64,000 bases of DNA. Source: Patescibacteria group bacterium. Lineage in GTDB: Bacteria; Patescibacteriota; Minisyncoccia; Phycocordibacterales; UBA918. The notes under the pieces are model-generated. The model was not told the DNA's origin. It did no database searches and was given only the letters and a program-made list of their open reading frames with translations. The translations under genes and the position numbers were made by a program. How positions within the stretch are numbered: position 1 is the first letter of the stretch; the number at the start of each line of letters is the position of its first letter. The stretch lies in assembly GCA_019752815.1 (NCBI GenBank), contig JAIELQ010000005.1:49625-113624 (forward strand). The letters are read 5' to 3'. Positions 8,228 through 48,525 of the stretch are shown here, piece by piece.

Positions 8228-8264
8228 AATCAAATCCCAAAGCTGGTAACGGCTTCGGGATATT

Positions 8265-9296: not shown

Positions 9297-9297
9297 G

Positions 9298-11360: not shown

Positions 11361-11438
11361 TAGAGGAGTGGGTTTCGCGGTAGTACGTAAGCTGACTGAA
11401 GTGTAATCAGTCAATCTACTAGTTTAATTAAAAAATCT

Positions 11439-11840: not shown

Positions 11841-11857
11841 ATTGCATTGCATATTAC

Positions 11858-11884
11858 AAAAAACCGATTACCATCGGTTTTTTG
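11858..11884 (+). terminator. Rho-independent terminator
   Basis: AACCGAT-TACC-ATCGGTT followed by TTTTT. Confidence 0.7.
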
Positions 11885-11983
11885 TAATATTTAAGCAGTA
11901 GTGACGGCTTGATAGTGTAGAGGCAGATAACTCTCTAGGTACGTTATATGAATCTTATCCTTAATTAATTTTAATTAACTTAT

Positions 11984-12253
11984 ATGTTTACAAATACACT
12001 CTCAACCCAATTTACCCTGAAACTCGCAGTGGCTTCAACTATCGCTCTTAGTGGGTTTGTTGCTCTGACTGGTTTGGCTAATGCTGCAACGTACGCATAC
12101 GTAGATGCAGCTGGTGATGTAAAATCAGTGGTAGCAAACGACTGGAAAACAGCCATTGCCACCGCCCCAAATATTCATATCCATAGTGGCGTGATGTTGC
12201 TTACAACAGCAGCGGACTACACGATTGTGGGTGACTCAGTCTCAGGCTACTAA
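11984..12253 (+). CDS. Small secreted hypothetical protein
   Basis: Signal-peptide-like N-terminus ([21 protein letters not shown]). 89 aa. Confidence 0.45.
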
Positions 12254-12370
12254 ACCTCGTTGTGTGACCTACCAACTAAATGCACGGCATTTGGCTGGTA
12301 GAGAGTGACTGCGAGCGTGGGGGAGGTAAGTAGAGCAAGTTCTTTATTCTGAGTTAAAAATTGAACAATT

Positions 12371-13462
12371 ATGAAAAAAATTTCAACCGCCGCGCTGACA
12401 CTGGTGCTACCACTTTTGGCCTTGAGTGCGTTTTTAGTAGGCGTACCACAAACTGAGGCAGCCACAACTGATCCGGCCTGTACTCTCTATATCATCCATA
12501 ATAATCAAGTGAGCGAAACAAAATCACAGATTAACATCCAAGTAGCAAAAAACGATTTTGTGGGATTGATTTGGTATGGCATGAATGTCACGTCTGCAGT
12601 CGATACAGATGCTAAAACAGTGCCTACACTTGGTGCTCAAATAATTTTACCCACACGTGATAAGTCGTATTCGTATACCTTTAGCAATGGTGTAAAAAAT
12701 GTTACCTGTAACATTGATATTGAAGTAATTTCAGGGAGTGTATCAACAAAAAGTACTGCCAAATCAGATGAAAAATTTACCCTGACAGGAAAAGTTGAAG
12801 GAGCAACCAAAGCGGTTATAGCGTTTTATGCTCCCGGTGCTACCACACCGATTTATACTACAAAAGCAGTGACACTCAAGCGTGAAAAATTTAGTTTTAA
12901 AATGCCAAAAGCATTAGTTGATGATACGTATCATATCGTATTGCAAACCACTGATGCAAAGCCAATTGTGCTCGCCACGAGTACCATTACTGTTGGTAAG
13001 CCAAAGCCAGTGGCGCAAACGACCCTAGTAGTGCAAACAGTCCCATTACTATCGGGTGGGGTGGTCAAGGTAGGACGCGGGGTCGCCGTGGCGTACCTGC
13101 AAGTAATCAATGTTGGTACCACTCCAGCTCAATTAACGGACTTTACCTTTGGGCAAGTAGGAACTGCGCCGACTACAGCAATTGTAGGAGTGAGTATTAA
13201 TGATGAACTGGGATTAAGTAAGGGCTCAGTAGGGAATATGGTATCCGGGACACCGTTTACGGGGAATAAAGTAGTAATACCAGTGCCGGTAACCCTCGCT
13301 GCTAAAGAATCACGACTCTTTACGGTTCGGGCGGTGGTGGGTGCTAATGCTACTGCTAACATCGGCCAAACGATGTTGCTGTCGCTACAATCAATCACCG
13401 GTAACGCCAAAATTCAGAGTTCTCTTCCGGTAAACGGTGTGACGTGGACGATAGGGCAGTAA
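12371..13462 (+). CDS. Secreted hypothetical protein (363 aa)
   Basis: Signal peptide MKKISTAALTLVLPLLALSAFLVGVPQTEA. Thr/Val-rich beta-type sequence. No domain recognised. Confidence 0.55.
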   Translation: MKKISTAALTLVLPLLALSAFLVGVPQTEAATTDPACTLYIIHNNQVSETKSQINIQVAKNDFVGLIWYGMNVTSAVDTDAKTVPTLGAQIILPTRDKSYSYTFSNGVKNVTCNIDIEVISGSVSTKSTAKSDEKFTLTGKVEGATKAVIAFYAPGATTPIYTTKAVTLKREKFSFKMPKALVDDTYHIVLQTTDAKPIVLATSTITVGKPKPVAQTTLVVQTVPLLSGGVVKVGRGVAVAYLQVINVGTTPAQLTDFTFGQVGTAPTTAIVGVSINDELGLSKGSVGNMVSGTPFTGNKVVIPVPVTLAAKESRLFTVRAVVGANATANIGQTMLLSLQSITGNAKIQSSLPVNGVTWTIGQ

Positions 13463-13519
13463 TGTGTGATTTTTTACCTGAACAGGTTCAGAACACTTGG
13501 TTCAGGAATTTAGACAAGC

Positions 13520-13600
13520 AAATTGGTCACAAATTCAGAGAGCGTTGGATAGGAGTGGAATTTTGTATTTCTACCCAAGTCAGGTACTTCAGAACTCGAG
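13520..13600 (+). repeat. Direct repeat DR1 (about 80 nt); about 80 percent identical to DR2 at 15085..15170
   Basis: Shared core AAtTGGTCaCaAATTCAGAGAGcGTTGGATAGgAG...GGATTtT...TTCAGAACTcGAgT. Confidence 0.6.
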
Positions 13601-13606
13601 TGGATA

Positions 13607-13640
13607 AAAAGAAAGACCGCCCCCCAACGGTCTCTCAAAT
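13607..13640 (-). terminator. Terminator for the minus-strand gene 13684..14256
   Basis: On the minus strand: GAGACCGTTGGGGGGCGGTCTT hairpin then TTCTTTTT. Confidence 0.55.
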
Positions 13641-13683
13641 GAGATGGGTTGTGGCGATCATCTTACCTCCATTGTTTGCATTC

Positions 13684-14256
13684 CTAGCTTAAGCCTAAGT
13701 ACCGGACCGCCCGTTCGGGGTCTATCCTGTAGGGTGTTTCGTGACCCTCTAGGAAATGATGCTCGCGTATCAAGTGAGGATGTAGGTCTGAGAATATCAT
13801 TGCCCAGTCGTATTTCACCAACATCGTATAGTAGTCGAGTGGTATTGTTGAGTTTTGGACGAATCTCGTCTTCACTCCTTCAGGACAATCTTTATTGACT
13901 ACAAAGATCTGAGTGACCTTTAACGAAAGCCCGAAAGGTCCAGTAGTGCAAAAATCTCCCCAAGGACAAACGGGACTGTGTATGTAGTATTCCCGAAATA
14001 TCCGATTTCCACACACATGCTCATCATCGGTCTGGAATAGTCGTTCAATAGCACTGGCTAGTTCTTCATACGAAAGGTTGAGACGCTTTATAGTTTCTCG
14101 ATCCTTTTCAATCAACTGGTATAGATCTTCATTTGCGCCTAGGTAGCCAAAACGCAACTGTTCGTCAGGATGGTTTGGACGTAGTCTTTTCAATAACTCG
14201 TTTTTCGACGGTCGAGGCATTGAAAAGGGGAGTTCATTTTGTAAATTTCGTCCCAT
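13684..14256 (-). CDS. Hypothetical protein (cassette 1 cargo)
   Basis: ORF 13684..14334. Likely start is the ATGATG at 14256, preceded by GAGGAT. His/Cys-containing (CPWGDFCTTGPFG, HPHLIREHHFLEGHE). No domain recognised. Confidence 0.5.
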   Translation of the reverse strand: MGRNLQNELPFSMPRPSKNELLKRLRPNHPDEQLRFGYLGANEDLYQLIEKDRETIKRLNLSYEELASAIERLFQTDDEHVCGNRIFREYYIHSPVCPWGDFCTTGPFGLSLKVTQIFVVNKDCPEGVKTRFVQNSTIPLDYYTMLVKYDWAMIFSDLHPHLIREHHFLEGHETPYRIDPERAVRYLGLS

Positions 14257-14360
14257 CATTATCCTCGTTTTCAGGTACTGAAGCTTATCTGAGAAAAACT
14301 CTACACTAAATAATTTTGAAAGACAACAGTTCAAATTTTAGTTAACTTTTCTTTACAATA

Positions 14361-14383
14361 GCTCCCCAGGCAGGATTCGAAGC
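14361..14383 (+). repeat. Degenerate copy A of the tRNA-Asn 3' end (att-like)
   Basis: GCTCCCCAGGCAGGATTCGAAGC versus the tRNA 3' end GCTCCCCGGGCAGGATTCGAACC at 20410..20432. A roughly 60-nt imperfect palindrome follows (CTTTCGC...GCGAAAG). Confidence 0.65.
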
Positions 14384-14545
14384 TTACTTTCGCAAGTGAG
14401 TAAGGAATACAAAATTTACTTGGTTTTGAGTTACTAACTCAGCGAAAGAATATTTGCATACAGCTTCAGCACAGGTTGTCGCTCGCTTGTTTCTAAATCA
14501 ACAATATCACTGGATAAAATTAAGAAACTGCTTTCTGAGCTTACG

Positions 14546-14947
14546 TTACATAAACGCAGACAGTAGGAAGTACGCCACAATGGAGTTGATTACAAGACCA
14601 AGGACAAATGTAAAAGCAAAACTAAATGACCCCCTACTCATATGACTGCCAAGTTGTGACGTAAAGTAGAACAACATTCCTAACACCGAACAAACAATTA
14701 ATGCCTCTAGTTGAGAAATATCTATGATTGTGGCCTGCCAATAGTCACCCGCCATGTACTGTCTAGTTGTATATGCATTAGGACGACCATAGCCTAAAAA
14801 CACCCCTAACGTTGGATCTAATCGAATAAAAACAAAAAGTACAATGGCATATAAAAATGACCAAAAGAACCCGTTTTCTTTTTGTTTCGATATCCCTTTG
14901 AGTTGTTTATAAAAAAAGCAACAGATTACATAAGTAATTGCATGCAT
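14546..14947 (-). CDS. Hypothetical polytopic membrane protein (AT-rich gene)
   Basis: 133 aa with four hydrophobic helices. Local GC is clearly below the window average. Confidence 0.5.
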   Translation of the reverse strand: MHAITYVICCFFYKQLKGISKQKENGFFWSFLYAIVLFVFIRLDPTLGVFLGYGRPNAYTTRQYMAGDYWQATIIDISQLEALIVCSVLGMLFYFTSQLGSHMSRGSFSFAFTFVLGLVINSIVAYFLLSAFM

Positions 14948-15084
14948 ATTTAGGCACTATACGCTTCAAAGAAGAAGGGGTGTGGAGTCATAAGTTGATA
15001 TGTATATGCGTTCATATGTAAACAAAATGATTGCAATATTAATTATGTTAGCACGAATGGTTCGAACTCCGCCAAGGTACGTGG

Positions 15085-15170
15085 ATTTTGATAAGTAACT
15101 GGTCGCTAATTCAGAGAGAGTTGGATAGAAGCCGGATTATATTTGGTAATCATAGTTAAATATTTCAGAA
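15085..15170 (+). repeat. Direct repeat DR2 (partner of DR1)
   Basis: AACTGGTCGCTAATTCAGAGAGAGTTGGATAGAAGCCGGATTAT...TTCAGAACTAGAATTCAG. Confidence 0.6.
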
Positions 15171-15222
15171 CTAGAATTCAGTAAATGAAAAGGCCAGCAA
15201 AAAATCTGCTGGCCTCCAATGA

Positions 15223-15648
15223 TCAATCATTCAATGGTGCTGACACTGGTGTCCGGTATTCATACGCTAGGACATCAGCGGGCGGCTCTTCAATCGCCGT
15301 GTGGCGAATGAAGAGAACGCCATTCCGCAGCAGCATGTTCGGCCCTGCGCTACCTCGGTAGCGGCCAAACGAAACTGCAACAGCGCCGGCCTTTGCAAAT
15401 GCCTTGCACAGCTCGATCAGCAATCCTGTCGGCTTATTGTCTTCTGAGATATACTTTTCAATCTGACCATCCACATCGATGTGGGCCACACCGTGGTCTG
15501 AGCAATTCAACGCCTTGCTGTTATCACCCTTGAGGGTGATAGTGAGAAAAGGCTGTTTGAACGGCAACGGGTTGTCTGCATTTGCCGACATGTGCGGGTT
15601 ATACCGCGCCATAATCTTCTCCATAAAGTCACCTATCGCATTATCCAT
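15223..15648 (-). CDS. Hypothetical protein (GC-rich, cassette 2 cargo)
   Basis: 141-aa ORF. GC is roughly 58 percent versus about 45 percent in the window, suggesting foreign origin. No domain recognised. Confidence 0.5.
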   Translation of the reverse strand: MDNAIGDFMEKIMARYNPHMSANADNPLPFKQPFLTITLKGDNSKALNCSDHGVAHIDVDGQIEKYISEDNKPTGLLIELCKAFAKAGAVAVSFGRYRGSAGPNMLLRNGVLFIRHTAIEEPPADVLAYEYRTPVSAPLND

Positions 15649-15715
15649 CTGTCTTCTCCTTCTGTTTCTGAACCAAAAATACAGTAATACAAAATATAAA
15701 CCATGTCAATATAAA

Positions 15716-15738
15716 GCTCCCCGGGCAGGATTTGAAGC
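15716..15738 (+). repeat. Degenerate copy B of the tRNA-Asn 3' end (att-like)
   Basis: GCTCCCCGGGCAGGATTTGAAGC. Copies A and B share the GAAGCTT variant. Confidence 0.65.
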
Positions 15739-15767
15739 TTTTAGGTCCGTGTGTTTCTAAGTGGTGA

Positions 15768-18164
15768 TTACAATGCCCACTTCGGTCGACGGTAGTAGGT
15801 AAAGGCAAGTAACACACTAATAAATATCAAGGGTATAAGTAATCGCTGGCGAAAAGTATTGGTTACTGGGGTGTCTTGTGTGCCATCGTCAGCTTGGGCG
15901 ATATTGGTGCCGAGTATAGTTGGTAGACTATCAATAATAGTTTCAGTGGTGGTAGCTACTCCCAGCACAGTCGGGAGTGTGTCGTCAGTCAGAAAGCTAG
16001 CATTTGATTGCATCAAGAGTGGGTAGGTGAGGGCCGTGGGTAGATTAGTTGCACGGTAGAGAATTGTACCGTGGGCCAAATTCTGTCTCGACGCTACGTT
16101 ATTTTGCAGTAGGGTAGTATCGAGGGTGTAGGTGCCTGGATTAGCACCCCCCATAAAGGTAATCTCGTATAAAACGGTTATTTCCTCATAGGGCAGGAGA
16201 GTGCCAATGTCCCAGACCTCGGTTTGAATTATATTCCCAAGCTCGTCTCGTAAATTATCGGTGAGGCTTATGTTCATAAAGGTCTTGCTCGTTGGATTAT
16301 TGATGATGATGTGCTGCGGGGAGACTTCTCCTTGGTGTGTAATACTGCTGGTCGATAGACGATTAATTGTGATATTACTCAGATTAGTCATAGCGGGTGT
16401 ATCGGATAGATTTTTTAACACCGTATTTTTCTTGCTGGTATTAGAACCGCCACTACTAACTTTTTTACTGGCGTAAATTGTTCCGGTATCAGAATTGTCT
16501 TGTGTATTATTATCGTTTTCGTGTGAGGTTACATTAACGGTGTTAGTAATTTCTGTACCAGGGACCGTGTTACGAACTTTTGCTTGATATGATATTTGGC
16601 TTGATTCGCCTACTGCGAGTGGCTCGGGTAAGTTGAAGGAAATCGTTCCGTCACTTAGGGTTGTGTAGGTATGTGAGGAATCAATGATCGAGAGGTGTGC
16701 GGTATCAAAATCGTCACGAACGATGACGTTGTTGGCGATGGCGTCACCTTGATTGATGATGGTGTAGGTATAGGTAACTACGCTATCGTTTTTTATGGTT
16801 GCAGGAGTAGAAATCTCCTCACCAATCCAAAGGTCAGGTCGGCCAAAGGCGAGGTTGCCGGTAAAGTCGCCAAAGATATTAATTATAGCGAGTGTCCAAT
16901 TTCTTCCGATGACGGTGGCGTTAGCAACAGTGACCACATTGGCGCCAATCAATGCGTCACCGGTGGTAATCAGGGACGAATCTGCTCCGGTAATGGTATT
17001 TTGTCCACTGTTGGCAGTGAGGGTTGCATTGGTAGTGATAGCGGCGGTGTTGGTGGCGCTGACTGTACGTTGTGCCGCAGCAGTACTGCCCTGATTTGAG
17101 TTGGTGAGGTAGTATGAACCATCATCTCCTTTGATTACTTCTATCTCGGGAATTAATCCTTGAATTTCACCCAGCCAATCACCATGAACTTTGAGCATAA
17201 TAACCATTGAGTCACCACCAAGGAGGGCGCTGTTAATAGAATTAATAGTTTGAGTGACACTTTTGGCATTGCCGGTTAGGGTGGTAGTAACGTTACCGTC
17301 TACGGTGTTATTGCCAGTATTAGAATTAGACTCAATGTTGCTTGTTACTAAAGCTTGATTTTGAATATCGATATTGGTCGGAACGGTTGAGACCGCTGAG
17401 GTAAAAAAGTTATTTAGTCCAGGAAAAATAATATCACCCGTAACATCACGAAAGGCATTTACTGTGACTACCAAATAGTGTGAATCAATAAAGGTACTGT
17501 TAGCGATTGTGACGAGATTCAGGCCCGTAAATGCGTCGCCCGTTTCAATCAGAGCATTACCTAGATTTGTTTCCAGTTCGTTGTTCCCGGTAATCGATTC
17601 AAGGAAAATTGTATTATCGATTGTAGCGCCGTTTATTACGCCAACACTGACTGCGTCAGAAGATAAGCAGGTATGTAAATCGCAGGGGACGCTTGTGCTA
17701 CTTTGTGGACGGAAATCAAGCGCGTTAGTTTGGTTGTTGTGTAGCTGAGCAAAAATAATTTCACCTTGGGAATTAACAGAAGTGGTATTCACGACATTTA
17801 AAATATTAGCGGCAGCGAGCGCATCACCAGTAACGATACTGGTGGTAGTCGCTATGATTGCTGTTTCCGTGGTGGTTGCCTGTGCATCGCTTGTAGTAGC
17901 GGGGGTAGATTCGAGATCGCTCGTGGTAGCCACGCTTTCGCTACGCTCTTCGCTTGTCGTAGAAATCGGTTTTGTTACCTGAGGAGGGGTGTTAGTTACT
18001 ATATCCACAATGACGCTTGTTTCTGCTGGGTTTGTTTCTGTTTGTGACTGACCGGCTTCTGTATCTTCATCCGCATATACGGAGGTTGAAAATAGGGGAG
18101 TGCTGAGGAGAAGCATCAGGGCAGCAAATATTCCAGCGGCAAATTTTTTGATGTATGTTTTCAT
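15768..18164 (-). CDS. Large surface/adhesin-like protein (798 aa) with signal peptide and C-terminal TM anchor
   Basis: N-terminal signal peptide MKTYIKKFAAGIFAALMLLLSTPLFSTSVYA. Thr/Asn/Ser-rich beta-repeat body. C-terminal LLIPLIFISVLLAFTYYRRPKWAL is a hydrophobic anchor with a basic tail. Confidence 0.7.
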   Translation of the reverse strand: MKTYIKKFAAGIFAALMLLLSTPLFSTSVYADEDTEAGQSQTETNPAETSVIVDIVTNTPPQVTKPISTTSEERSESVATTSDLESTPATTSDAQATTTETAIIATTTSIVTGDALAAANILNVVNTTSVNSQGEIIFAQLHNNQTNALDFRPQSSTSVPCDLHTCLSSDAVSVGVINGATIDNTIFLESITGNNELETNLGNALIETGDAFTGLNLVTIANSTFIDSHYLVVTVNAFRDVTGDIIFPGLNNFFTSAVSTVPTNIDIQNQALVTSNIESNSNTGNNTVDGNVTTTLTGNAKSVTQTINSINSALLGGDSMVIMLKVHGDWLGEIQGLIPEIEVIKGDDGSYYLTNSNQGSTAAAQRTVSATNTAAITTNATLTANSGQNTITGADSSLITTGDALIGANVVTVANATVIGRNWTLAIINIFGDFTGNLAFGRPDLWIGEEISTPATIKNDSVVTYTYTIINQGDAIANNVIVRDDFDTAHLSIIDSSHTYTTLSDGTISFNLPEPLAVGESSQISYQAKVRNTVPGTEITNTVNVTSHENDNNTQDNSDTGTIYASKKVSSGGSNTSKKNTVLKNLSDTPAMTNLSNITINRLSTSSITHQGEVSPQHIIINNPTSKTFMNISLTDNLRDELGNIIQTEVWDIGTLLPYEEITVLYEITFMGGANPGTYTLDTTLLQNNVASRQNLAHGTILYRATNLPTALTYPLLMQSNASFLTDDTLPTVLGVATTTETIIDSLPTILGTNIAQADDGTQDTPVTNTFRQRLLIPLIFISVLLAFTYYRRPKWAL

Positions 18165-18263
18165 GAAAATATTTTGTAATGATAAATCCTGTCCTTAGAT
18201 ACCCTGACGAAGTAGCTTCGCAATGGTATCTAAAAACAGGGGGTCCTGTTTTTAGAGTAAACC

Positions 18264-19364
18264 TTAGTTACGGACGATTCGGGTCATGGTACGACCTGAG
18301 GTAGTCACAATAGTAGCCAGCGAGTCAGAGACACCGGTATTAACCGCGCCGCCATTTCCACCGTTACCACCAGTACCGCCGGTGCCAGCAGTTGAATCAT
18401 TTGATTCAGATCCACTACCACTTGTGTTACCTCCGTCACCACCACGCTCTGCCCGTGCACCACGAGAGGTATTGTCTCCGGTTTGGGCATTCACCGCGAC
18501 GGCGTTACCGACATTAGCTGTATTGGTGTTTGCTGCAGCAATGTCATCTTCGTCATCAACATGAGTGCGAGTGTATTCAATTGATAGGTTGTCGTATTCG
18601 ACAAGACTAATGTCTGAAGTAAGTGTTACATCATCAGAAATGGCGTTATTTGACGATGAATTTGATTCAGATGAATTGTCGTACTCACTCGCTGATTCTG
18701 ATTCAGTGTTGTTTGACTCTGATTCAGAGTTTGATGAACTAGATTCTGAATTAGAGCTTGAACTTTCGTCAGTGTCATCTGATGAATCACTATCAGATGA
18801 AGAGTCAGACGCTTCATTTTCAGAAGCTGATTCTGAGTTAGCTTCCTCACTTTCAGATTCACTTCCTGTTACAGAAGTACTTTCTGATTCTTGTTGTGAA
18901 GAGTTTTCATCGTAGTCTTGAACATATGATGTAGATTCATCATAGGTCATGCCAGTTTCAGATTGGTATGACAATGTTTCATCATAATTTTCGTCGTTTC
19001 CGTTATTGTCTTCGATAACGGTATCGGTAGTGTTAACATCATTGCGAATGTCAGCAGTGGCGATAGCATCACCGGTCGTGATGCTGCCACCATTTCCGCC
19101 ATTTCCACCATCGCCACCGTCGCCGGCAGTACTACTGCCGTCATTAGAACCGCTGACGTTACCACCTTCACCACCACGATTCGCCCGAGCGCCTCGAGAA
19201 GTGTTTCCACCAGTGTTGGCTCCAACTGTTACTTGGTTAGTAACCGTTGCTTCGTTGTCGTTAGTAACGGTTATTGCTCCAGCCAAAGCTGTTTGTCCAC
19301 CGACAGCCACCATACTTAATATGGCGAGTGTCGCAGTAGATTTTGCTAAAATGTTTGTTCTCAT
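18264..19364 (-). CDS. Secreted polyanionic low-complexity protein with an internal duplicated Gly/Asn domain
   Basis: Signal peptide. Two similar Gly/Asn-rich segments (..GGNTSRGARA.RGG.GGN.SGS..STAG.GG.GGNGGNGG..) flank an extremely Ser/Asp/Glu-rich stretch (SESESEEANSESASENEASDSSSDSDSSDDTDESSSSNSESSSS...). Confidence 0.6.
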   Translation of the reverse strand: MRTNILAKSTATLAILSMVAVGGQTALAGAITVTNDNEATVTNQVTVGANTGGNTSRGARANRGGEGGNVSGSNDGSSTAGDGGDGGNGGNGGSITTGDAIATADIRNDVNTTDTVIEDNNGNDENYDETLSYQSETGMTYDESTSYVQDYDENSSQQESESTSVTGSESESEEANSESASENEASDSSSDSDSSDDTDESSSSNSESSSSNSESESNNTESESASEYDNSSESNSSSNNAISDDVTLTSDISLVEYDNLSIEYTRTHVDDEDDIAAANTNTANVGNAVAVNAQTGDNTSRGARAERGGDGGNTSGSGSESNDSTAGTGGTGGNGGNGGAVNTGVSDSLATIVTTSGRTMTRIVRN

Positions 19365-19574
19365 AATGTGTAAGATTATTTATTAATTTGTCGAAGCAAA
19401 ATTGTTTGATATAAAAAAATAACAAATTACCTCCAGACAAAACTAATACCGCGGTGGTCAAATGTAGATTACAAACTGAGTTCAAAAGTTGCTCACTAGG
19501 CAACAGAAAAATAGATACGTCATTAATTTAAAAAAAATTACCACCCGAGTTTCATCGGGTGGTTTTGATAATAA

Positions 19575-20165
19575 TTACTCTGATTCTGTGATGTCTTGCA
19601 CAGATGGTGTTTTGAGTTTTATCTTTTGTTTAATTTCGTCACCTTTGGCAAACTGTATGTAAATTGTTTCGCTGGCGGCTCGTTTGCTTATGCCTTCAAT
19701 TGCGGTCGCTTCGTCGGGACTCGCCTCCATTGCTTCAACATTCAGTTCCCATTTTCGGCGCAGAAATTTCAACTTCCGTAACGTAATTAAACGCTCAATA
19801 AGGGTGACCACTTCTTTAGCACTACGTGGCACACTGATGCCTGCAGGCGTATTTCTCCAACCTAACGTGCCAGTTGCCCAGGTAACGGAACGTTGTTTGC
19901 CGTTGTCGGTGAGCGTTGTTTTATGAGTGCGTGCGTACTCTTTTAGAATGGTGAATTTTTCAGCAAACTCGTCTGACACTTTTGCTGCCTTTTGGTCAGC
20001 TACCACCACCAATACATTGATGGCTTGATTCAGTTCAACCTGCTGCTGCTCAAGTTTGAGCTTCAGTTTCTCTAGTTCTCCCAACAACTGGGCAGCTTCA
20101 GCATCGTTTGTCGGTATAGGGAAGGTATGTTTTTTGGCCACGATAGGCTCCTTTGAAATGAACAT
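19575..20165 (-). CDS. Phage Mu Gam-like host-nuclease inhibitor family protein
   Basis: N-terminal coiled coil (LLGELEKLKLKLEQQQVELNQAINVL) then the Gam-like core KTTLTDNGKQRSVTWATGTLGWRNTPAGISV..AKEVVTLIERL. Confidence 0.6.
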   Translation of the reverse strand: MFISKEPIVAKKHTFPIPTNDAEAAQLLGELEKLKLKLEQQQVELNQAINVLVVVADQKAAKVSDEFAEKFTILKEYARTHKTTLTDNGKQRSVTWATGTLGWRNTPAGISVPRSAKEVVTLIERLITLRKLKFLRRKWELNVEAMEASPDEATAIEGISKRAASETIYIQFAKGDEIKQKIKLKTPSVQDITESE

Positions 20166-20296
20166 TTCTTATATAAGGCCGATTGTGTTTTGAGATGATT
20201 GCAGGTTGTTTTCTTCTTGGGTAGGATTCGATTCCTACAGAATCTATGCAGCGTTTGGATATTTTGTGCGCAAGCTACAAAATATCTCAAAACGCT

Positions 20297-20398
20297 TTTC
20301 GAATCCTGACGCAAGGCACGTGTAGTGCCTTGCTCCCGGGGAGCGTGTGATCATAGGTACAGTAAAAGCCACAAGCTGATGCTTGTGGCTTTTACTGT
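20297..20398. repeat. Palindromic structure next to the tRNA-Asn 3' end
   Basis: Perfect 18-bp inverted repeat ACAGTAAAAGCCACAAGC-TGAT-GCTTGTGGCTTTTACTGT at 20361..20398. At 20297..20346 there is an inverted copy of the tRNA 3' motif (CGCTCCCCGGGAG...CAGGATTCGAA on the minus strand), split by the hairpin GCAAGGCAC-TACAC-GTGCCTTGC. Confidence 0.6.
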
Positions 20399-20410
20399 AT
20401 GATTACTACG

Positions 20411-20743
20411 CTCCCCGGGCAGGATTCGAACCTGCGACCAATCGATTACACGAATCTCCTAATTTCTTAGAGGGGTGGACTATATCATCACCGGTTGTAT
20501 TTCTACACGACGGTGCAAGGCGCTTCGAATGCATTTTTGCATCCTACTCCCGTAAGGGATAGTCTCTGAACCTTCAATTGGATTTCTCCAAAAGCTTGGC
20601 TGCTGATTGCCCACAGCACACGAATGTCTGTTTCGGGGTTCCAGCAATTCACCTTGTTTGCAATAACGATTTCTCGATAAGGCTGCTATTTTGAACTTTG
20701 TCCACTGTTACAGTCGACTGCTCTACCGCTGAGCTACCGAGGA
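20411..20743 (-). tRNA. tRNA-Asn(GUU) interrupted by a group I intron. Exon 1 is 20710..20743, the intron is 20449..20709, exon 2 is 20411..20448.
   Basis: Exons on the minus strand read UCCUCGG-UA-GCUC-AGCGGUA-GAGC-A-GUCGA-CUGU / UAA-UCGAU-UGGUC-GCAGG-UUCGAAU-CCUGC-CCGGGGA-G. The acceptor stem, D arm and discriminator G73 match bacterial tRNA-Asn (compare E. coli UCCUCUGUAGUUCAGUCGGUAGAAC...). The intervening 261 nt ends in G and carries the group I R element GUUCAGAGACUA, the S element AUAUAGUCC, and P/Q-like elements AAUUGCUGGAA and AAUCAGCAGCC. Confidence 0.8.
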
Positions 20744-20854
20744 GCGTAATAATCATGCGCACTTAATTCCCTAATGGGAAATAAGTGCCTGTATTGTACA
20801 GAAAAATAGGATTTATTCAACCGTGGGGGCGGGGAGGGGGTAAATGGGGTGAGG

Positions 20855-21322
20855 TTAATCGTTTTGGTCGTTTAACGTAACCGTTTTCATGACGGTGATA
20901 AAACCTTTGACATCAAGTGGTCCAGCACCTCTGAGCCATTTCCGGCTCTCTTTGCGGAGGATGGGTTCGATAGTGGTGACAAGTTCTGAACCGGCAGACG
21001 TGATAGTGGCCAAGCGTTCACGTTTGTCTGTTTTGCCGGCAGTGATGCTAACCAGGTTTCGATCCTGCAGGCGTTTGATGCGCAGGGTTATGAAGGGGGC
21101 CTCGACACCCAATTCTTCTGATAAAACACTCAGTTTCATTCCGGTACGTTTATCGTCATGCAAGAGCCCAATAATAGCCCAGTCGACACTGGTGAGGTCG
21201 TAGGGGGCGAGTACGGCATCGGTGTGGGATTTGAGTACCCGGTGGGTGCGAGCCACCAAAACGCCAATTTGGTACGTGGTAAGTGTGAGGTGTTTGACAA
21301 TTAACCGTTTGAGTAATGACAT
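20855..21322 (-). CDS. MarR-family transcriptional regulator
   Basis: 155 aa. Winged-HTH segment SVLSEELGVEAPFITLRIKRLQDRNLVSITAGKTDKRERL is typical of MarR. Confidence 0.8.
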   Translation of the reverse strand: MSLLKRLIVKHLTLTTYQIGVLVARTHRVLKSHTDAVLAPYDLTSVDWAIIGLLHDDKRTGMKLSVLSEELGVEAPFITLRIKRLQDRNLVSITAGKTDKRERLATITSAGSELVTTIEPILRKESRKWLRGAGPLDVKGFITVMKTVTLNDQND

Positions 21323-21494
21323 GTGACTAGCTTATGTGGTTATACAAAATTAGTAAAGAGGGATTGTAATGAAAGGAGTGAAGATACGGCATAAAGGCAG
21401 TTGCGCAAAATGTGGCCTTTGCGTACAATACTATAAATACTTAATCAAGTTAAGTATATTACCAACTGACCAAATTAAAAAACTTAAACTTCGT

Positions 21495-22148
21495 ATGAAC
21501 AACTATGTAATTGCAGCCATTATTGGGGTCATTATCATTGCGGGTATTGTATACGCATCACAAAATGATGAAGTGTCTATGCAAGAAAAAGTACAGATGG
21601 ACCAAGAGGCTAAAATGAAAATGGAAGCCGAAGCTCGGGAAAAAGCCGCTATGGAAGCTAATGCAAACATGGATGCAAAAACCAACACTGAAGCAGGGGT
21701 AATGGTTGGAGGAGCAATGATGTTACCAACACTCGACATTGTTGATAATGCAGCCAAAGCCAGTAATGTAACCACTGTAGTCACTGCAGTAAAAGCGGCT
21801 GGTTTGCTTGACACCCTTAAAGGTCCTGGACCATTCACTGTTTTTGCACCAACAAACGATGCGTTTGCTAAGTTACCAGCAGGAACAGTTGATTCGTTAC
21901 TAAAGGCCGATATGAAAGCTGACCTCACAAGTATCTTGACTTATCACGTGGTCGCGGGACGCTACACCGCTGCGGATCTAAAAGATGGTATGACACTAAA
22001 GACGGTAAATGGAGCTACACTTAAAGTAAGTAATGTTAACGGAGTCGTTAAAATTAATGGATCTTCAACTGTGCAAACAGCTGATGTGATTTCTAGTAAC
22101 GGAGTAACTCATGTTGTTGATACGGTTTTGATGCCACCAAAGATGTAA
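21495..22148 (+). CDS. Membrane-anchored fasciclin (FAS1) domain protein
   Basis: ORF 21369..22148. The likely start is the Met at 21495, followed by a TM helix (YVIAAIIGVIIIAGIVYA). FAS1 motifs FTVFAPTNDAFAKLP and HVVAGRY..TNGVTHVVDTVLMP. Confidence 0.85.
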   Translation: MNNYVIAAIIGVIIIAGIVYASQNDEVSMQEKVQMDQEAKMKMEAEAREKAAMEANANMDAKTNTEAGVMVGGAMMLPTLDIVDNAAKASNVTTVVTAVKAAGLLDTLKGPGPFTVFAPTNDAFAKLPAGTVDSLLKADMKADLTSILTYHVVAGRYTAADLKDGMTLKTVNGATLKVSNVNGVVKINGSSTVQTADVISSNGVTHVVDTVLMPPKM

Positions 22149-22167
22149 TCATAGCTAGAAGATCAGA

Positions 22168-22196
22168 AAAACGTCGACTGAGAAGTCGGCGTTTTT
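22168..22196 (+). terminator. Rho-independent terminator
   Basis: ACGTCGACT-GAGA-AGTCGGCGT followed by TTTTTCT. Confidence 0.65.
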
Positions 22197-22237
22197 CTGA
22201 TATACTTACCGTGTTATAGGCTAATTATCTTTTACAT

Positions 22238-22525
22238 ATGCTTAATCTCTATATCAAAACGGGTTGCCCCTACTGTCTGCGGGTGCTTGAAGCAAACGAA
22301 ACTATCAAAGCGCCGCTTGTGCTACGAAATATCTCTGAAAATCCTCAATTACGAGAGGAACTTATCGAGAAAGGAGGTAAGGCTCAAGCTCCGTATTTAG
22401 AAGATACTGATCGTGGTGTATCAATGTATGAGTCACTCGACATCATAGAGTATCTCAAAGTAAATTATGGTAATGGGGAGACGGTTGAAATAAAAACGGT
22501 GGGTAACGTGTGTCCAATAGACTAG
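22238..22525 (+). CDS. Glutaredoxin-like protein
   Basis: N-terminal LYIKTGCPYCLRVLE has the CPYC active site. 95 aa thioredoxin fold. Confidence 0.75.
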   Translation: MLNLYIKTGCPYCLRVLEANETIKAPLVLRNISENPQLREELIEKGGKAQAPYLEDTDRGVSMYESLDIIEYLKVNYGNGETVEIKTVGNVCPID

Positions 22526-22621
22526 AAGAGCGATACTTTTATAAGTGGTATACTATGAATATCAGTACGATAGTAAATGTCAGACAGGTTGCAGATGTAG
22601 TTATTAATATAAATCTACACA

Positions 22622-22987
22622 ATGTCATTCCCAAACATTTCATTCAAACACACTCAAACGGAAGTGAATTATAAATTGCAGGATTTAATAACTACCAAAT
22701 TACAGACACTCGAACGATACATTGGGGGTAAAAGTGATAATCGGTGTGAGGTAGAGTTTTCTAAAGTAGCTCCGCATCAAAGTGGCGATATTTATAAAGT
22801 AGAAGTAAATATCTGGAGTGATGGGGTACTGTACCGCGCGACTGACACAGCTAGCACCTTTGAAAATGCCATTGATGCGGTGCGCAGTGATCTAGACAGT
22901 GAGCTTAACCGCGCTCGAACCAAAAAAATGAACTTGTGGCGTAAAGGCGCACGCAAGATGAAAGAAATGATGCGATTTGGCCAGTAA
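22622..22987 (+). CDS. hpf: Ribosome hibernation promoting factor / RaiA (YfiA) family
   Basis: 121 aa. FKHTQTEVNYKLQDLITTKLQTLERYI...YKVEVNIWSDGVLYRATDTASTFENAIDAV has the beta-alpha-beta-beta-beta-alpha pattern of the sigma-54 modulation protein family. Confidence 0.8.
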   Translation: MSFPNISFKHTQTEVNYKLQDLITTKLQTLERYIGGKSDNRCEVEFSKVAPHQSGDIYKVEVNIWSDGVLYRATDTASTFENAIDAVRSDLDSELNRARTKKMNLWRKGARKMKEMMRFGQ

Positions 22988-23022
22988 GGAAAATTGAATA
23001 GTGAAAATTGAATATTGAAGAT

Positions 23023-23052
23023 AAAAAACAAGCGCATGGCGCTTGTTTTTTT
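23023..23052. terminator. Bidirectional terminator between hpf (+) and fmt (-)
   Basis: AAAAAACAAGCGC-ATG-GCGCTTGTTTTTTT. Confidence 0.75.
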
Positions 23053-23067
23053 ATGATTATCTTTAAA

Positions 23068-23946
23068 CTATTTGTTTTTGAAGTATTGATTCCAATCCAT
23101 TTCGTTTTTACCTTCGGGGATGATGCGGGTAATCATGAGTTTGCCAGTTGGGGTGAGGGTGGCTTGTTTGATTTTGATGCGTTTACCCTCATGGATGAAG
23201 AATGTTTCGGGCCAGCCATCAAAGGCACAGATTTTGCGGTACGTTGCGAGAGCCTCGTCGCCGGTGGGTAGCTTGGCAGGGTCGATTTTTAGCTCGGACA
23301 TGTCCTTGGTGATTTTGGTACAGAAGGTGGCCTGGGTGTCGTCTTGTGCTGTGGGCGTTAGGGTGCCTTTTTGTAGTTCAACCATCACGTGTACGAGCAA
23401 ATCGCCACTGATGAGTGCCATAGTGCGATCGAGTTCGGCTCCGGGGATTGGTTCGGGTAACATCACTGGTTGTTGATGCAAAATTGGTCCGTGATCTAAT
23501 TGTGCATCCATTTGCATGATGGTAACGCCGGCGGCCGAGAGGTTGGACAGGAGTGTACTACGAATTGGACTGGCACCGCGTAGTTTGGGAAGAAGTGATG
23601 GGTGGGCGTTAATCGTGCCGTACTTCGGTAGATTAATAAGCCAATCGGGCATAATTTTGCCATAGGCAAACACTACAAAAAAATCAAACGTTTCAGCTGT
23701 CAGCGGTCCTAGTTCCTCAGCATTTTTGAGTGTCGTTGGTTGAAAGACAGGAATGTTGCGTTCAGCTGCCCAAACTTTGGTTGGTGGGGGAGTAATGACT
23801 TGTTTGCGACCAACTGGAGCGTCTGGGTTGCAGACAATTAGTGCGGGCACAAAACCAAATGTCTCCATTTCGGTGAGGGCTGTGGAAGCTATTTCCGGTG
23901 TGCCAAAGAATGCAAAACGGGGATTGGGGTAGCTTGTTTTTTCCAT
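23068..23946 (-). CDS. fmt: Methionyl-tRNA formyltransferase
   Basis: N-terminal FFGTPEIASTALTEM..PALIVCNPDAPVGRKQ..TPPPTKVWAAERNIPVFQP. Also the formyltransferase motif INAHPSLLPKLRGASPI. Confidence 0.92.
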   Translation of the reverse strand: MEKTSYPNPRFAFFGTPEIASTALTEMETFGFVPALIVCNPDAPVGRKQVITPPPTKVWAAERNIPVFQPTTLKNAEELGPLTAETFDFFVVFAYGKIMPDWLINLPKYGTINAHPSLLPKLRGASPIRSTLLSNLSAAGVTIMQMDAQLDHGPILHQQPVMLPEPIPGAELDRTMALISGDLLVHVMVELQKGTLTPTAQDDTQATFCTKITKDMSELKIDPAKLPTGDEALATYRKICAFDGWPETFFIHEGKRIKIKQATLTPTGKLMITRIIPEGKNEMDWNQYFKNK

Positions 23947-48264: not shown

Positions 48265-48525
48265 GGGAGGGAAATCCAAAATCCATCATCTGCGTTGTTG
48301 GTTGGCAAAAAATTTTGTTCAAGGTGAGAAAGTCTGGGAGACTTTCCCAAGAGGTTGCCAGCTAGTTTGAAAAACTAGCGACAACCTGAACAGCTTCTGT
48401 AAGAAGCAGAAAGCACACCTCACAATATTTTTCACCACCCGCCTAGCAGCTGAAAGAATTTTGAACTTCCATCGACCATTTAGGTGTTTACAAAACCGAC
48501 CGCTCACGCGGTCGGTTTTTGTTAT
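48265..48525 (+). ncRNA. Candidate structured non-coding RNA (unclassified) between greA and lysS
   Basis: About 260 nt without a credible ORF. Stable hairpins (GGTTGCCAGCTAGTTT-GAAA-AACTAGCGACAACC, and CTTC-TGTAA-GAAG). Ends in the terminator CCGACCGC-TCAC-GCGGTCGG followed by TTTTTGTT at 48496..48522. Confidence 0.35.

Follow-up and report, generated by a model that had tools for sequence, protein, structure and literature searches.

The question raised by this locus is what an extended palindrome is doing directly downstream of a tRNA-Asn gene in a member of the Patescibacteria, and whether it marks a site of recombination, a terminator or something else. CPR/Patescibacteria have tiny genomes with few recognisable mobile elements, and gene flow in them is poorly understood. 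In a preliminary description of the 64,000-nucleotide stretch of DNA analysed here (the window), the geometry of the palindrome was read as suggesting a recombinase recognition or attachment core, or an attC-like folded site. We think it probable that it is, rather, the boundary between the tRNA-Asn gene and a structured insertion unit of ~190 nt, standing at the head of an array of cassettes.

The palindrome borders an intron-bearing tRNA-Asn gene

The host gene is a real tRNA-Asn(GUU) carrying a group I intron and missed by ARAGORN; its joined exons differ by one base from the uninterrupted tRNA-Asn which ARAGORN calls in another locus (L001). Its parts are:

20793..20820, minus strand: promoter-like site of the tRNA, TTGAAT-16-TACAAT, the identical promoter sequence standing before the tRNA in L004, L013 and L024
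20710..20743, minus strand: 5′ exon of tRNA-Asn(GUU) (positions 1-35), from a reading of the sequence; an identical exon occurs in uninterrupted genes
20449..20709, minus strand: group I intron between anticodon positions 35 and 36, its ends deduced from the exon sequences
20411..20448, minus strand: 3′ exon of tRNA-Asn, with discriminator G73 at 20411; its last 21-23 nt are the left arm of the palindrome

The intron matches Rfam family RF00028 (20456-20703, minus strand, 81.6 bits, E=1.6e-20). A group I intron at 35/36 of the Patescibacteria tRNA-Asn is already known (Nakagawa et al., bioRxiv 10.1101/2025.07.03.662931) and the window gene is exactly of the known type, with a ~260-nt intron at 35/36 that annotation tools overlook; the parts of that preprint covered here hold no mention of a downstream structured unit or cassette array. 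The structured unit described below is also present behind intron-less tRNA-Asn genes. Element and intron together explain the contig breaks and the missing tRNA-Asn annotation at this locus. The window pre-tRNA also has a 20-bp pairing between leader and trailer, which is missing from L026.

Beyond the tRNA, on the same strand, lies a perfect hairpin (T1), with arms at 20358-20376 and 20381-20399 that are 100% complementary around a 4-nt loop. It had been described as an 18-bp stem at 20361..20398, correctly as to its perfection and its loop, but the stem is 19 bp long (20358-20399). The inverted copy of the tRNA 3′ end reported next to it was found as two perfect blocks, one of 12 nt (20335-20346 against 20408-20419) and one of 11 nt (20298-20308 against 20420-20430), and the 26 nt between them contain a 9-bp hairpin, perfectly paired around a 5-nt loop (20311-20319/20325-20333). 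The impression of an extended imperfect inverted repeat was likewise borne out, 20290-20435 folding as one long hairpin with a side hairpin (as RNA at -96 kcal/mol, z=-15.3; as DNA at -63.9 kcal/mol, z=-15.5), and none of 200 shuffles folded equally well. The 22-nt tRNA-end motif has a chance expectation of 0.00 occurrences within the window. Dispersed short repeats were set aside as a source of the structure, the window holding no further exact or near copy of either the 9-bp or the 19-bp hairpin.

T1 resembles a terminator

20358..20399, minus strand: T1, a perfect 19-bp hairpin whose core is a 9-bp G+C-rich stem followed by UUUU, lengthened by an A-run/U-run and flanking pairs

It had been stated that no U tract follows this hairpin. 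A UUUU does in fact stand directly 3′ of the 9-bp core GCCACAAGC/GCUUGUGGC, although it is taken up in the extended stem; the core is followed by UUUUACUGU, with 4 U only, and because these pair with the upstream AAAA the terminator scan made no call here. T1 begins 11 nt past the tRNA-Asn discriminator base, and so directly downstream of a transcription unit, a position shared by ~20 loci; its positional homologue in L009 is called as a terminator on both strands, and a call was also made for the hairpin after the L016 module. Between the window and the L026 homologue there are four compensatory double changes, with the pairing retained. T1 is probably a bidirectional terminator-type hairpin that ends transcription of the tRNA, and a unit that brings T1 along would leave the tRNA with a terminator.

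The inverted copy is one strand of a structured element

T1 and an adjoining element of ~135 nt with five helices (the module) make up the ~190-nt unit. The parts of the module in the window are:

20212..20344, minus strand: the module (class I structured element), a complete copy with a decayed 3′ strand; covariance model R1 gives 108.5 bits, E ~1e-22, over model positions 1-135
20335..20346, minus strand: 5′ strand of helix P1, GCTCCCCGGG plus ACG, which is block 1 of the inverted copy
20311..20333, minus strand: hairpin H1, 9 bp, loop UACAC, which is the 9-bp hairpin already described
20298..20308, minus strand: 5′ strand of helix P2, CAGGATTCGAA, which is block 2 of the inverted copy
20250..20296, minus strand: stem A / hairpin B, a long hairpin with a bulged A
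20230..20244, minus strand: hairpin C, loop UGUAG (family consensus UGUAA)
20213..20226, minus strand: decayed 3′ strand of P2/P1, TCCTACCCAAGAAG in place of TCCTGCCCGGGGAG, with four G-to-A changes in 14 nt

The 5′ strand of the closing helix of the module is the “inverted copy” itself, and the 3′ strand of that helix repeats the tRNA end in direct orientation. The 5′ end of the module and its upstream flank also resemble the 5′ end of a tRNA and its leader. Promoter-like hexamers within the module, on either strand, reach at most 9/12 matches, which is the chance rate, and are inconsistent between loci.

We suggest that a three-hairpin core (H1, stem A/B and hairpin C) would be clamped by the closing helix P1+P2, and that in the tRNA-linked class the 3′ strand of this helix would reproduce the final ~15-23 nt of the tRNA in direct orientation, namely the end of the T-loop, the 3′ strands of the T-stem and of the acceptor stem, the discriminator and C74. 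The 5′ strand would then appear as an inverted copy of the tRNA end because the 3′ strand copies that end, and would be split at the point where H1 branches. This may account for the long hairpin of the window: with a mere ~60 nt between them, the 5′ strand could pair with the real tRNA end, which would be the only good partner left to it here, G-to-A changes having degraded the 3′ strand of the unit itself.

Unit boundaries fall at the end of the tRNA-like site

20409..20410, no strand assigned: unit junction ...GGGGAGC / T1; BLAST end-points fall at GAGC in L016, L017, L020, L023, L027 and L009
15715..15736, minus strand: near-copy, in direct orientation, of the 3′ end of the tRNA (2 mismatches); a TTGACA promoter and a 141-aa ORF come after it, and it bounds a variable 4.7-kb segment on the right
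14360..14381, minus strand: a further near-copy in direct orientation, again with 2 mismatches to the tRNA 3′ end and with a small hairpin ahead of it

The direct repeats of the tRNA 3′ end, at 20409-20430, 15715-15736 and 14360-14381, flank DNA which varies between relatives: the Gam-like, 366-aa and DUF11 genes of the window array are absent from all relatives. The genes for deformylase, FMT, HPF, Grx, fasciclin and MarR are syntenic, and the other side of the tRNA is conserved in ~12 loci. The array has the tRNA gene at its head, with MarR, fasciclin and glutaredoxin genes as upstream neighbours. A tRNA-end remnant precedes the conserved 141-aa cassette in both the window and L002, the junction being kept in L002. 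The structured unit heads a variable array, whose cassettes each end in a tRNA-end-like site; the protein-coding cassettes of the same arrays terminate in such sites (X sites) with no inverted copy.

In relatives, all sequence to the right of the junction (on the tRNA strand) moves as one unit. Identical T1-plus-module sequences stand behind three different left neighbours, a cassette of ~810 nt has GAGC at both of its boundaries, and units also occur in tandem arrays and as truncated copies, which in L013 and L024 adjoin a small HNH endonuclease; model R1 has two matches in the window and up to 5-6 per short locus. There is, in addition, a clean 210-nt presence/absence difference, with inverted-repeat ends, between L013 (where it is present) and the syntenic window. 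Identical units behind unrelated neighbours, together with this polymorphism, argue for insertion rather than local duplication. The 210-nt insertion is the one case compatible with a TA (or A) target duplication; the tRNA-linked copies are flanked by tRNA repeats of 15-23 nt rather than by a target duplication. The units are discrete and insertional, with boundaries lying exactly after the tRNA-like ...GAGC.

Had the region been a tRNA processing or terminator structure only, it should have been invariant among relatives and free of island junctions; the tRNA-end copies, the variable DNA and the exchange of units at ...GAGC contradict this. Neither an empty site for the tRNA-linked class nor an excised circle of the unit was seen among the loci compared, and no copies were found in viral, phage or plasmid sequences. 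Searches of viral contigs returned 0 matches for the exact module pattern and 0 for the X-site pattern, and the 7 matches to the interior pattern were all spurious (reverse-complement tRNAs or unrelated sequence).

The fold of the element is conserved in a family of loci

The ~190-nt unit lies behind tRNA-Asn at no fewer than 25 distinct Patescibacteria loci. The family as assembled comprises 5 genome loci and 21 metagenome loci, with 25 distinct module sequences from at least three CPR groups; the metagenome contigs are short, and the sequences are partly non-independent because several loci come from related samples. When the modules are aligned by hand (A1), 92.5% of cells pair, compared with 32-48% if the partners are slid, and compensatory double changes occur in 27/47 pairs (7/9 in H1 and 15/18 in stem A / hairpin B), with 0/500 shuffles reaching the observed values. 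RNAalifold independently recovers H1, A/B, C and P2, and in a wider alignment, fitted to the model, double changes occur in 42/47 pairs (9/10 in P1). The fold of the module is under selection. P1 and P2 are almost invariant in the Asn class, and so the backing for their pairing comes only from the Leu-type copy, the class II copies and L021.

The Leu-type version is linked to tRNA-Leu(CAA) and builds its helices from tRNA-Leu sequence; its units end ...CAGCACCA, as the tRNA does, with 19-nt spacers only between units, and its modules have no terminator ahead of them. Asn-type modules do have a terminator ahead, and no consistent promoter. Modules behind non-tRNA sites show 0 mismatches with their own 3′ end and 2-5 with the upstream sequence, and the L021 module pairs with itself and not with the adjacent variant tRNA. 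Standalone and class II copies close with helices unrelated to their flanks; one such copy lies far from the tRNA in the window:

48315..48425, plus strand: second, diverged copy of the core (class II), R1 46 bits, E ~2e-8 to 7e-8

In this copy the H1 loop is UGGGA, stem A/B is present and the loop of hairpin C is UGUAA. Its closing helix is unrelated to any tRNA, and the copy stands after a GreA-like gene (recognised by eye) and before a terminator-like hairpin. Elsewhere, class II copies upstream of tRNA-Asn are placed between the sole promoter-like site seen and the tRNA, and two standalone copies are antisense to adjoining genes.

A search of the window and 19 loci with Rfam 15 gave nothing at or above gathering threshold except the intron and true tRNAs, and a relaxed search of the module gave chance-level matches only (<= 23 bits). 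This is a widespread and apparently undescribed structured non-coding insertion unit of CPR/Patescibacteria. Several known kinds of RNA were considered and rejected. A tmRNA or permuted tRNA was suggested by GGAUUCGA, which recalls the tmRNA 5′ end, but ARAGORN and Rfam were negative, and the unit lacks a tag reading frame and is not long enough. A primer-binding site for mature tRNA does not fit, the complementarity ending at the genomic C74 and leaving CCA uncovered. Self-cleaving ribozymes, retron RNA, omega/HEARO RNA and bridge RNA were negative in Rfam, and no RT, TnpB/IscB or IS110 transposase was found in any locus.

Could the module instead be a stand-alone non-coding RNA gene derived from a tRNA, with its minihelix and three-hairpin core arising by tRNA duplication, its ends processed by RNase P, RNase Z and the CCA-adding enzyme, and its arrays formed by tandem duplication? 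The strong covariation with conserved loops and junction nucleotides, the tRNA-like 5′ end and leader, the tRNA-like ends and short spacers of the Leu-type units and the location of copies between a promoter-like site and tRNA-Asn would all be expected of such a gene. Against it, the Asn-type modules follow a terminator with no promoter of their own, many copies (that in the window included) are truncated or decayed, no tRNA, tmRNA, YrlA or other Rfam family matches, and identical units behind unrelated left neighbours, with the precise 210-nt polymorphism, speak of insertion. We consider this explanation unlikely.

A second possibility is that the element is a recombination site of folded single-stranded DNA, like attC or the attP(+) of CTX phage, in which the hairpin would recreate the duplex tRNA 3′ end, a host recombinase would exchange one strand, and the bulged H1 would mark which strand that is. 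Structure is indeed kept while stem sequence is free to change, the closing helix is the target sequence for both tRNA-Asn and tRNA-Leu, the junctions of the cassette arrays fall at its base and the lack of an adjacent recombinase is consistent with a host enzyme. The balance of mismatches is also near-symmetric, favouring neither RNA strand: outside P1, G.U : A.C is 26 : 15, a mild excess, and the P1/P2 mismatches would be wobbles on the opposite strand. Yet the ORF cassettes end in X sites with no inverted partner, class II closing helices are unrelated to their flanks, there is no integron integrase or attI and a Xer-type query was negative, and the viral, phage and plasmid collections yielded no single-stranded replicon with the element. 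On this evidence a folded DNA site is quite unlikely, and no observation points specifically to one of attC type.

The palindrome is not itself an attachment core

Neither the window nor any of the loci yielded a recombinase, transposase or reverse transcriptase. Pfam and PHROGs searches of all ORFs at 6957-23946 and of the L021 array revealed no integrase; a local phmmer screen of 424 ORFs with approximate recombinase queries produced one weak match only, to the Cre query (E=0.0013), and no match to the Xer-type query. The weak Cre-like match (L021, ORF 9-1358) is not a recombinase by Pfam or PDB. Because no such enzyme was found, the mechanism of mobility is read here from its footprints alone.

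The suggestion of an attachment core holds in so far as the tRNA-Asn 3′ end is a hot spot of recombination or insertion, as the tRNA-end copies and the variable segment indicate, but the palindrome is not an att core of recombinase-binding arms. If its arms were recombinase recognition sequences, as had been proposed, breakpoints should lie between them; units are exchanged exactly after ...GAGC, which is at the outer edge of the left arm (20410/20409); the inserted unit includes both the central hairpin and the right arm. In the conserved ~135-nt element the right arm forms one side of the closing helix, and it pairs with the module's own 3′ end where the neighbour does not match.

A classical attachment site, with the arms as inverted sites bound by an integrase of the tyrosine or serine type and the palindrome as the attL/attP core of a tRNA-Asn island, is therefore hard to maintain, and we hold it to be very unlikely. 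It would account for the direct tRNA-end repeats at 15715 and 14360 with a variable segment between them, and for the phage-type Mu Gam-like gene which adjoins the structure; moreover, the near-identical tRNA-Asn of L001 is the integration site of a P4-type prophage (its integrase recognised by eye). However, the window and 26 loci turned up no integrase, and neither the place of the junction, nor the self-pairing of the right arm behind non-matching sites, nor the ORF cassettes that lack an inverted copy, agrees with it. The internal hairpins, furthermore, covary freely in sequence, and therefore behave as parts of a folded strand and not as a protein operator.

The array also departs from an integron: IntI and attI are absent from its head, where the tRNA gene stands instead, and the closing helix GCTCCCCGGG/CCCGGGGAGC, with its junction after GAGC, does not correspond to R″/R′ boxes (RYYYAAC / GTTRRRY) with a G/TT crossover. 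The unit is short, non-coding, multi-copy and polymorphic for insertion, as MITEs are, but terminal inverted repeats are not shared across the family, the outer helices being different, and no parent transposase was found.

That the whole is an ordinary terminator with a local accident, a quasi-palindrome lengthened by template switching (an established route to perfected palindromes) in one genome, is extremely improbable, and is refuted as a full explanation by the recurrence of the hairpin-interrupted inverted copy in 25 different sequences, which come from many samples and represent three or more CPR groups, by the covariation of the architecture and by the existence of a Leu-specific version; the extended perfect stem and flanking pairs of T1, found only in the window/L026 sub-lineage, may nonetheless be a lineage-specific lengthening of this kind.

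Possible roles of the structured unit

Returning to the structured insertion unit, we propose that units and cassettes would enter and be shuffled by recombination at the tRNA-end-like site, the agent being perhaps an enzyme encoded elsewhere, or else short-homology recombination. As to what the selected fold does, we lean slightly towards its acting as RNA, in which an acceptor/T-arm-like minihelix would present the core, and give appreciably less weight to its acting as single-stranded DNA. This preference comes from several copies whose position predicts co-transcription with tRNAs or mRNAs: likely to be transcribed are the class II copies that follow a promoter-like site, the terminator-free Leu-type modules and the copy at 48315-48425. 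Speaking against RNA are the terminator and the lack of a consistent promoter ahead of the Asn-type modules, the two standalone copies antisense to adjoining genes, and the G.U and A.C counts given above.

More tentatively, and as a wider claim that we regard as unlikely on present evidence, these arrays could be an undescribed cassette system on the tRNA genes of CPR/Patescibacteria, in which small units are shuffled at a tRNA-3′-end-like site with no neighbouring integrase and the structured unit is the active recombination or processing module. The units would then be of two kinds, single genes that each carry a promoter and a terminator, and the non-coding ~190-nt unit; the closing helix would reproduce, in double-stranded form, the end of the target tRNA (Asn or Leu), and either the folded strand would mimic the target, in the manner of attC or CTX phage, or the product would be an RNA tagged with a tRNA minihelix. 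If true, integrase-free cassette arrays would be an unrecognised route of gene acquisition in these bacteria, and the module would be a new structured nucleic-acid family with clear covariation, absent from Rfam 15. Covariance model R1 can be used for mapping such hot spots in CPR genomes.

Comparison with known systems

The tycheposons of Prochlorococcus carry tandem cargo arrays at tRNA genes (bioRxiv 10.1101/2020.12.28.424599). The arrays reported here share with P4-type islands and tycheposons the variable DNA downstream of a tRNA, bounded by partial direct copies of its 3′ end, the succession of units that leaves an array of tRNA-end remnants, and the conserved opposite flank. They differ in that they have no integrase within or nearby; in that the units are tiny (190 nt to ~1-5 kb), often a single gene with its own promoter and terminator; in that the first unit is usually a non-coding structured element; and in that breakpoints lie at the extreme 3′ edge (...GAGC), not within the T loop or anticodon loop.

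With ERIC, Correia/NEMIS, RUP and BOX elements and MITEs, the structured units have in common that they are short, non-coding, multi-copy and intergenic, with paired ends and either orientation to genes, that they are polymorphic between related genomes and that they form stable hairpins if transcribed. In contrast to those repeats, the terminal inverted repeats vary between copies (tRNA-Asn end, tRNA-Leu end or unrelated) and it is the interior that is conserved, as three independently covarying hairpins with fixed loops; no partner transposase was found, and one case only suggests a TA target duplication.

Integron attC sites and the folded attP of CTX phage are similar in being imperfect palindromes at cassette boundaries with structure conserved above sequence, and by analogy the units might recombine as folded single strands that mimic a duplex target. 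The likeness to attC stops at IntI, attI and the R/L box consensus, none of which is present; the element is longer and branched, the protein-coding cassettes of the same arrays lack the palindrome and no single-stranded replicon was found.

Lastly, the tRNA-like domain of tmRNA, YrlA, the 3′ tRNA-like structures of viruses and mascRNA all offer parallels for an acceptor/T-arm-like coaxial helix, with a tRNA end as its 3′ strand and another domain in place of the rest. The module has no true T hairpin and no equivalent of the D arm or anticodon arm, its pairing continues beyond the discriminator as far as C74, no significant match came from ARAGORN or Rfam, and many copies lack the tRNA-like ends. 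By analogy with those RNAs, the copies that have such ends could recruit tRNA-end processing enzymes, and if the fold does work as RNA it would be a natural tRNA minihelix serving as the scaffold for another RNA domain.

The palindrome behind tRNA-Asn

The palindrome described from sequence behind tRNA-Asn is confirmed. The stem of 18 bp with a 4-nt loop in the preliminary description is real and slightly longer, a perfect 19 bp (20358-20376/20381-20399), and the inverted copy of the tRNA 3' end consists of two perfect blocks, 20335-20346 (against 20408-20419) and 20298-20308 (against 20420-20430), separated by 26 nt that hold the perfect 9-bp hairpin (20311-20319/20325-20333) seen to split the copy. 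Folding gives a single long hairpin with a side hairpin (z about -15 as RNA and as DNA), and 0.00 chance occurrences of the 22-nt tRNA-end motif are expected in the window. The statement that no U tract follows needs correction: UUUU is present after the 9-bp G+C-rich core of T1, the terminator-type hairpin, but is taken up by the extended stem.

The host gene, tRNA-Asn(GUU) (20411-20743, minus strand), has its anticodon loop split by a group I intron (Rfam RF00028, 81.6 bits; about 261 nt) between anticodon positions 35 and 36, which is why ARAGORN does not call it.

tRNA-Asn exons
20710-20743 and 20411-20448, minus strand: when joined, 1 base differs from an uninterrupted tRNA-Asn(GUU)

This host tRNA and intron are already described: the available part of a recent preprint gives 35/36 as an insertion site in Patescibacteria tRNA-Asn, and reports HNH homing endonucleases within some of these introns (10.1101/2025.07.03.662931). 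Among genomes, the intron/exon junction sequence was found only in Patescibacteria MAGs (Kaiserbacteria, Saccharibacteria and one unclassified), several of them syntenic with the window, so a Kaiserbacteria-like CPR bacterium is its most likely source. In the pre-tRNA, complementarity between 5' leader and 3' trailer (20399-20418 and 20737-20756) extends the acceptor stem to a 20-bp helix, a pairing not kept in locus L026; the leader and tRNA 5' end (ATGATTATTACGCTCCTCGG) also resemble the sequence before and at the module 5' end (ATGATCACACGCTCCCCGGG).

A family of tRNA-linked units

Two related loci, L003 and L005, have the same architecture downstream of the tRNA, and 21 further metagenome loci were brought in by scanning for the pattern of the split inverted copy, making 25 distinct sequences in all. 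The palindromic structure is not unique to the window, whose feature belongs to an apparently undescribed family: no Rfam family matches the unit at gathering or relaxed thresholds, and it is mentioned neither in the literature searched nor in the available part of the tRNA-Asn intron preprint (10.1101/2025.07.03.662931). The unit comprises T1 and a structured module, and is found behind both intron-containing and intron-less tRNA-Asn genes.

The unit, read on the tRNA strand
Start: tRNA ...TTCGAATCCTGCCCGGGGAGC, the junction, then the T1 hairpin with an A-run and a U-run
5' part after T1: GCTCCCCGGG-AG, hairpin H1, then CGT-CAGGATTCGAA-R
Middle: stem A enclosing hairpin B, RTACTG, then hairpin C (loop TGTAA)
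3' end: GAAAT-TCCTGCCCGGGGAGC, then the junction

Comparison across the family shows that the predicted module fold is under selection. In a hand-built alignment of 21 sequences, tested against a structure drawn by eye, standard pairs fill 92.5% of cells, a share that drops to 32-48% once the 3' partners are shifted by 1-3 columns; double-sided changes occur in 27 of the 47 pairs, and none of 500 shuffles reached the pairing values. RNAalifold independently recovers H1, stem A/B, hairpin C and P2 (the last extended by UUC/GAA), and nucleotides of the loops and junctions are conserved (UUCGAAR, RUACUG, UGUAA, GAAAU and a bulged A). P1 and P2, the closing helix, are almost invariant inside the Asn class. 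A covariance model of the module (R1) picked up diverged copies, with which double changes rise to 42 of 47 pairs (9 of 10 in P1), counts that are biased towards structure by the model-fitted alignment.

The closing helix replicates a tRNA end

The palindrome of the preliminary description is the module 5' strand paired with the real tRNA end across T1; the constant partner of that strand across the family is the module's own 3' end. Modules behind non-tRNA sites have 0 mismatches with their own end and 2-5 with the upstream sequence. In L021 the module still carries CTTCCCGGG/CCCGGGGAG although the tRNA-Asn beside it differs in its acceptor stem (3' end ...GGTCGCGGAGC). Behind tRNA-Leu(CAA) in L017, tandem modules have GTGCTGGAGGA and GGACTCGAA on the 5' side and TTCGAGTCCCTCCTCCAGCACCA on the 3' side, these ends being the tRNA-Leu 3' end and its complement.

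Leu-type modules
L017, 1-344, minus strand: near-identical tandem modules, closing helices including CCA, with a 19-nt spacer and no terminator hairpin

Own-end pairing, the L021 module and the tRNA-Leu copies together mean that the closing helix copies, as a duplex, the 3' end of the tRNA to which the unit belongs, and a long palindrome arises when a unit is placed beside that tRNA. Decay has altered the module's 3' strand in the window, turning TCCTGCCCGGGGAG into TCCTACCCAAGAAG by four G-to-A changes; in the fold predicted in context, the 5' strand accordingly has the tRNA as its partner. T1 has 17-19 bp in the sub-lineage of the window and L026, perfect pairing being kept via four compensatory changes; elsewhere it is a 7-10-bp hairpin, called a bidirectional terminator in the one locus scanned (L009).

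Discrete units and cassette arrays

Identical copies of T1 and module lie behind tRNA-Asn (L016, L025), behind the X site GGTTCGAACRTCCTYCACCCAGCGGAGC, a diverged tRNA-3'-end-like site at cassette boundaries (L017, L020), and behind a degenerate site (L023, L027), homology beginning exactly at GAGC in all six. A cassette of about 810 nt shared by L009 (1091-1899) and L020 (728-1535) has GAGC at both ends and different neighbours in the two loci. X sites number 2-5 per locus and are oriented as the tRNA, with a terminator-like hairpin upstream and a TTGACA promoter or another hairpin downstream. Modules are in tandem in L012, L013, L019 and L026, as in the Leu type of L017, and truncated in L013, L015, L024 and L026.

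Several further features were seen in these loci. A small ORF for an HNH endonuclease (MPRKETRTYTDRAEY...CQICGY...HH...CMNCH), which carries its own promoter-like GTGGTATACT (L024 7056-7402, minus; L013 just downstream of about 2186, minus), truncates the module's tRNA-like 3' end by its last few nucleotides (CCTGCC(CG), then the break). A second site type, GCAACACCAGGTTCGAACGTCGCACCACACTCATT, lies on the strand opposite the tRNA (L016 near 3386; L020 near 1595 and 2621; L023 near 1201; L007 near 2015 and 2518) and adjoins bidirectional terminators inside the arrays. Two contigs of one Kaiserbacteria MAG (L003 start, L006 end) share about 100 nt located precisely at the 3' exon of tRNA-Asn and T1, and the repeat therefore appears to be a breakpoint for assembly; the L014 contig end is Illumina adapter sequence (AGATCGGAAGAGC).

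On the minus strand of the window, the tRNA, T1 and module are followed by a Mu Gam-like ORF, a 366-aa low-complexity ORF and a DUF11 ORF.

Array features in the window
19575-20165, minus strand: Mu Gam-like ORF (Pfam 4.8e-17), directly after the module, of DNA-end-binding, host-nuclease-inhibitor type
15768-19364, minus strand: 798-aa DUF11-domain protein and 366-aa protein, part of the array cargo
15715-15736, minus strand: tRNA-end near-copy (2 mismatches), with a TTGACA promoter and a 141-aa ORF immediately downstream
14360-14381, minus strand: tRNA-end near-copy (2 mismatches), after two small ORFs that follow the 15715 copy

The Gam-like ORF (likely start GTG at 20143, preceded by AAGGAG) is the sole phage-like gene of this array. 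The 366-aa protein has a hydrophobic N-terminal segment and long Ser/Asp/Glu/Asn-rich low-complexity repeats, and both it and the DUF11 protein look like surface or secreted proteins. Homologues of these three genes are missing from every related locus; synteny extends over about twelve loci on the opposite side of the tRNA (deformylase, formyltransferase, HPF, glutaredoxin, fasciclin, MarR). Both tRNA-end copies share the frame AAGC|TTCRAATCCTGCCYGGGGAGC|T. The 141-aa ORF is 77% identical to an ORF that lies 1.7 kb downstream of tRNA-Asn in L002; before that ORF come an X-like site, a hairpin like T1, a decayed remnant of the tRNA end and the promoter also seen in the window.

Island breakpoints, which the preliminary description proposed looking for at the arms of the palindrome, do occur as junctions, but at the tRNA-end copies and not between the arms. 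The proposed attachment or recombinase site finds partial support, in that a hot spot and junctions exist; the palindrome is not an att core.

Class II copies

The window holds a second module copy, of the diverged, standalone class II.

Second module copy
48315-48425, plus strand: diverged copy (R1, 46 bits)

H1 (loop UGGGA), stem A/B and hairpin C (loop UGUAA) are all present in it, the CAGGATTCGAA segment is absent, and the closing helix bears no relation to any tRNA. The gene before it (stop at 48260) we take by eye to be GreA-like, and a terminator-like hairpin lies beyond it (about 48497-48520). Similar copies in L003, L004 and L013 each have a 15-26-bp outer helix of unrelated sequence. 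In L013, which is syntenic with the window, one class II unit is a clean insertion of about 210 nt at ...CCAATAGACT|AG... in the glutaredoxin-HPF intergenic region, with inverted-repeat ends and a site compatible with TA or A duplication.

Other class II copies separate tRNA-Asn from its promoter and follow a duplicate of the first 24 or so nucleotides of the tRNA (...GCGGTAGAG|TGAG...).

5' tRNA fragment with class II core
L024, 7993-8150, minus strand
L004, 491-640, minus strand
L006, 400-560, minus strand
L011, 1033-1180, minus strand
L013, 2801-2900, minus strand

Most are followed by a GTCGAC-NNNN-GTCGAC hairpin (L004, L006, L011/L019, L024; a variant in L013), which is similar to the anticodon stem. 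L006 apparently has two such units in tandem; the window has none between its tRNA-Asn promoter and tRNA.

Mechanism and likeness to known systems

The loci show a fold under selection with paired ends, discrete, polymorphic and shuffled units, junctions at a tRNA-end-like site and a variable array in the window. No recombinase, transposase or reverse transcriptase was found in the window or the loci, and no copy of the unit in viral, phage or plasmid sequences. Recombination is inferred at tRNA-end-like sites, through an enzyme encoded elsewhere or by way of short homology, and T1 would travel with the unit so that the tRNA keeps a terminator.

We lean somewhat towards a fold that acts as RNA. 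Transcription would run along the folding strand in the class II copies located between promoter and tRNA, in the Leu-type tandem units, which no terminator precedes, and in the copies placed in a leader (L003) or a 3' tail (window); in stem A/B, G.U outnumbers A.C by 21 to 9. However, Asn-type modules have a terminator before them and no consistent promoter, two copies are antisense to neighbouring genes, and the P1/P2 mismatches would be wobbles on the other strand. Action as folded single-stranded DNA seems rather unlikely, and explanations other than RNA or folded DNA are less likely still.

The array is similar to islands anchored at tRNA genes and to cargo arrays of the tycheposon type, but has no integrase, very small units and breakpoints at the extreme 3' edge. 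Likeness to tRNA-like RNAs is limited to the acceptor/T-arm-like closing helix. The unit is similar to MITE/ERIC-type structured repeats, but lacks their defining conserved terminal repeats. The unit shares with attC and CTX attP a structure conserved over sequence and mimicry of the target, but shows no features of integrons and is missing from ORF cassettes in the same arrays.
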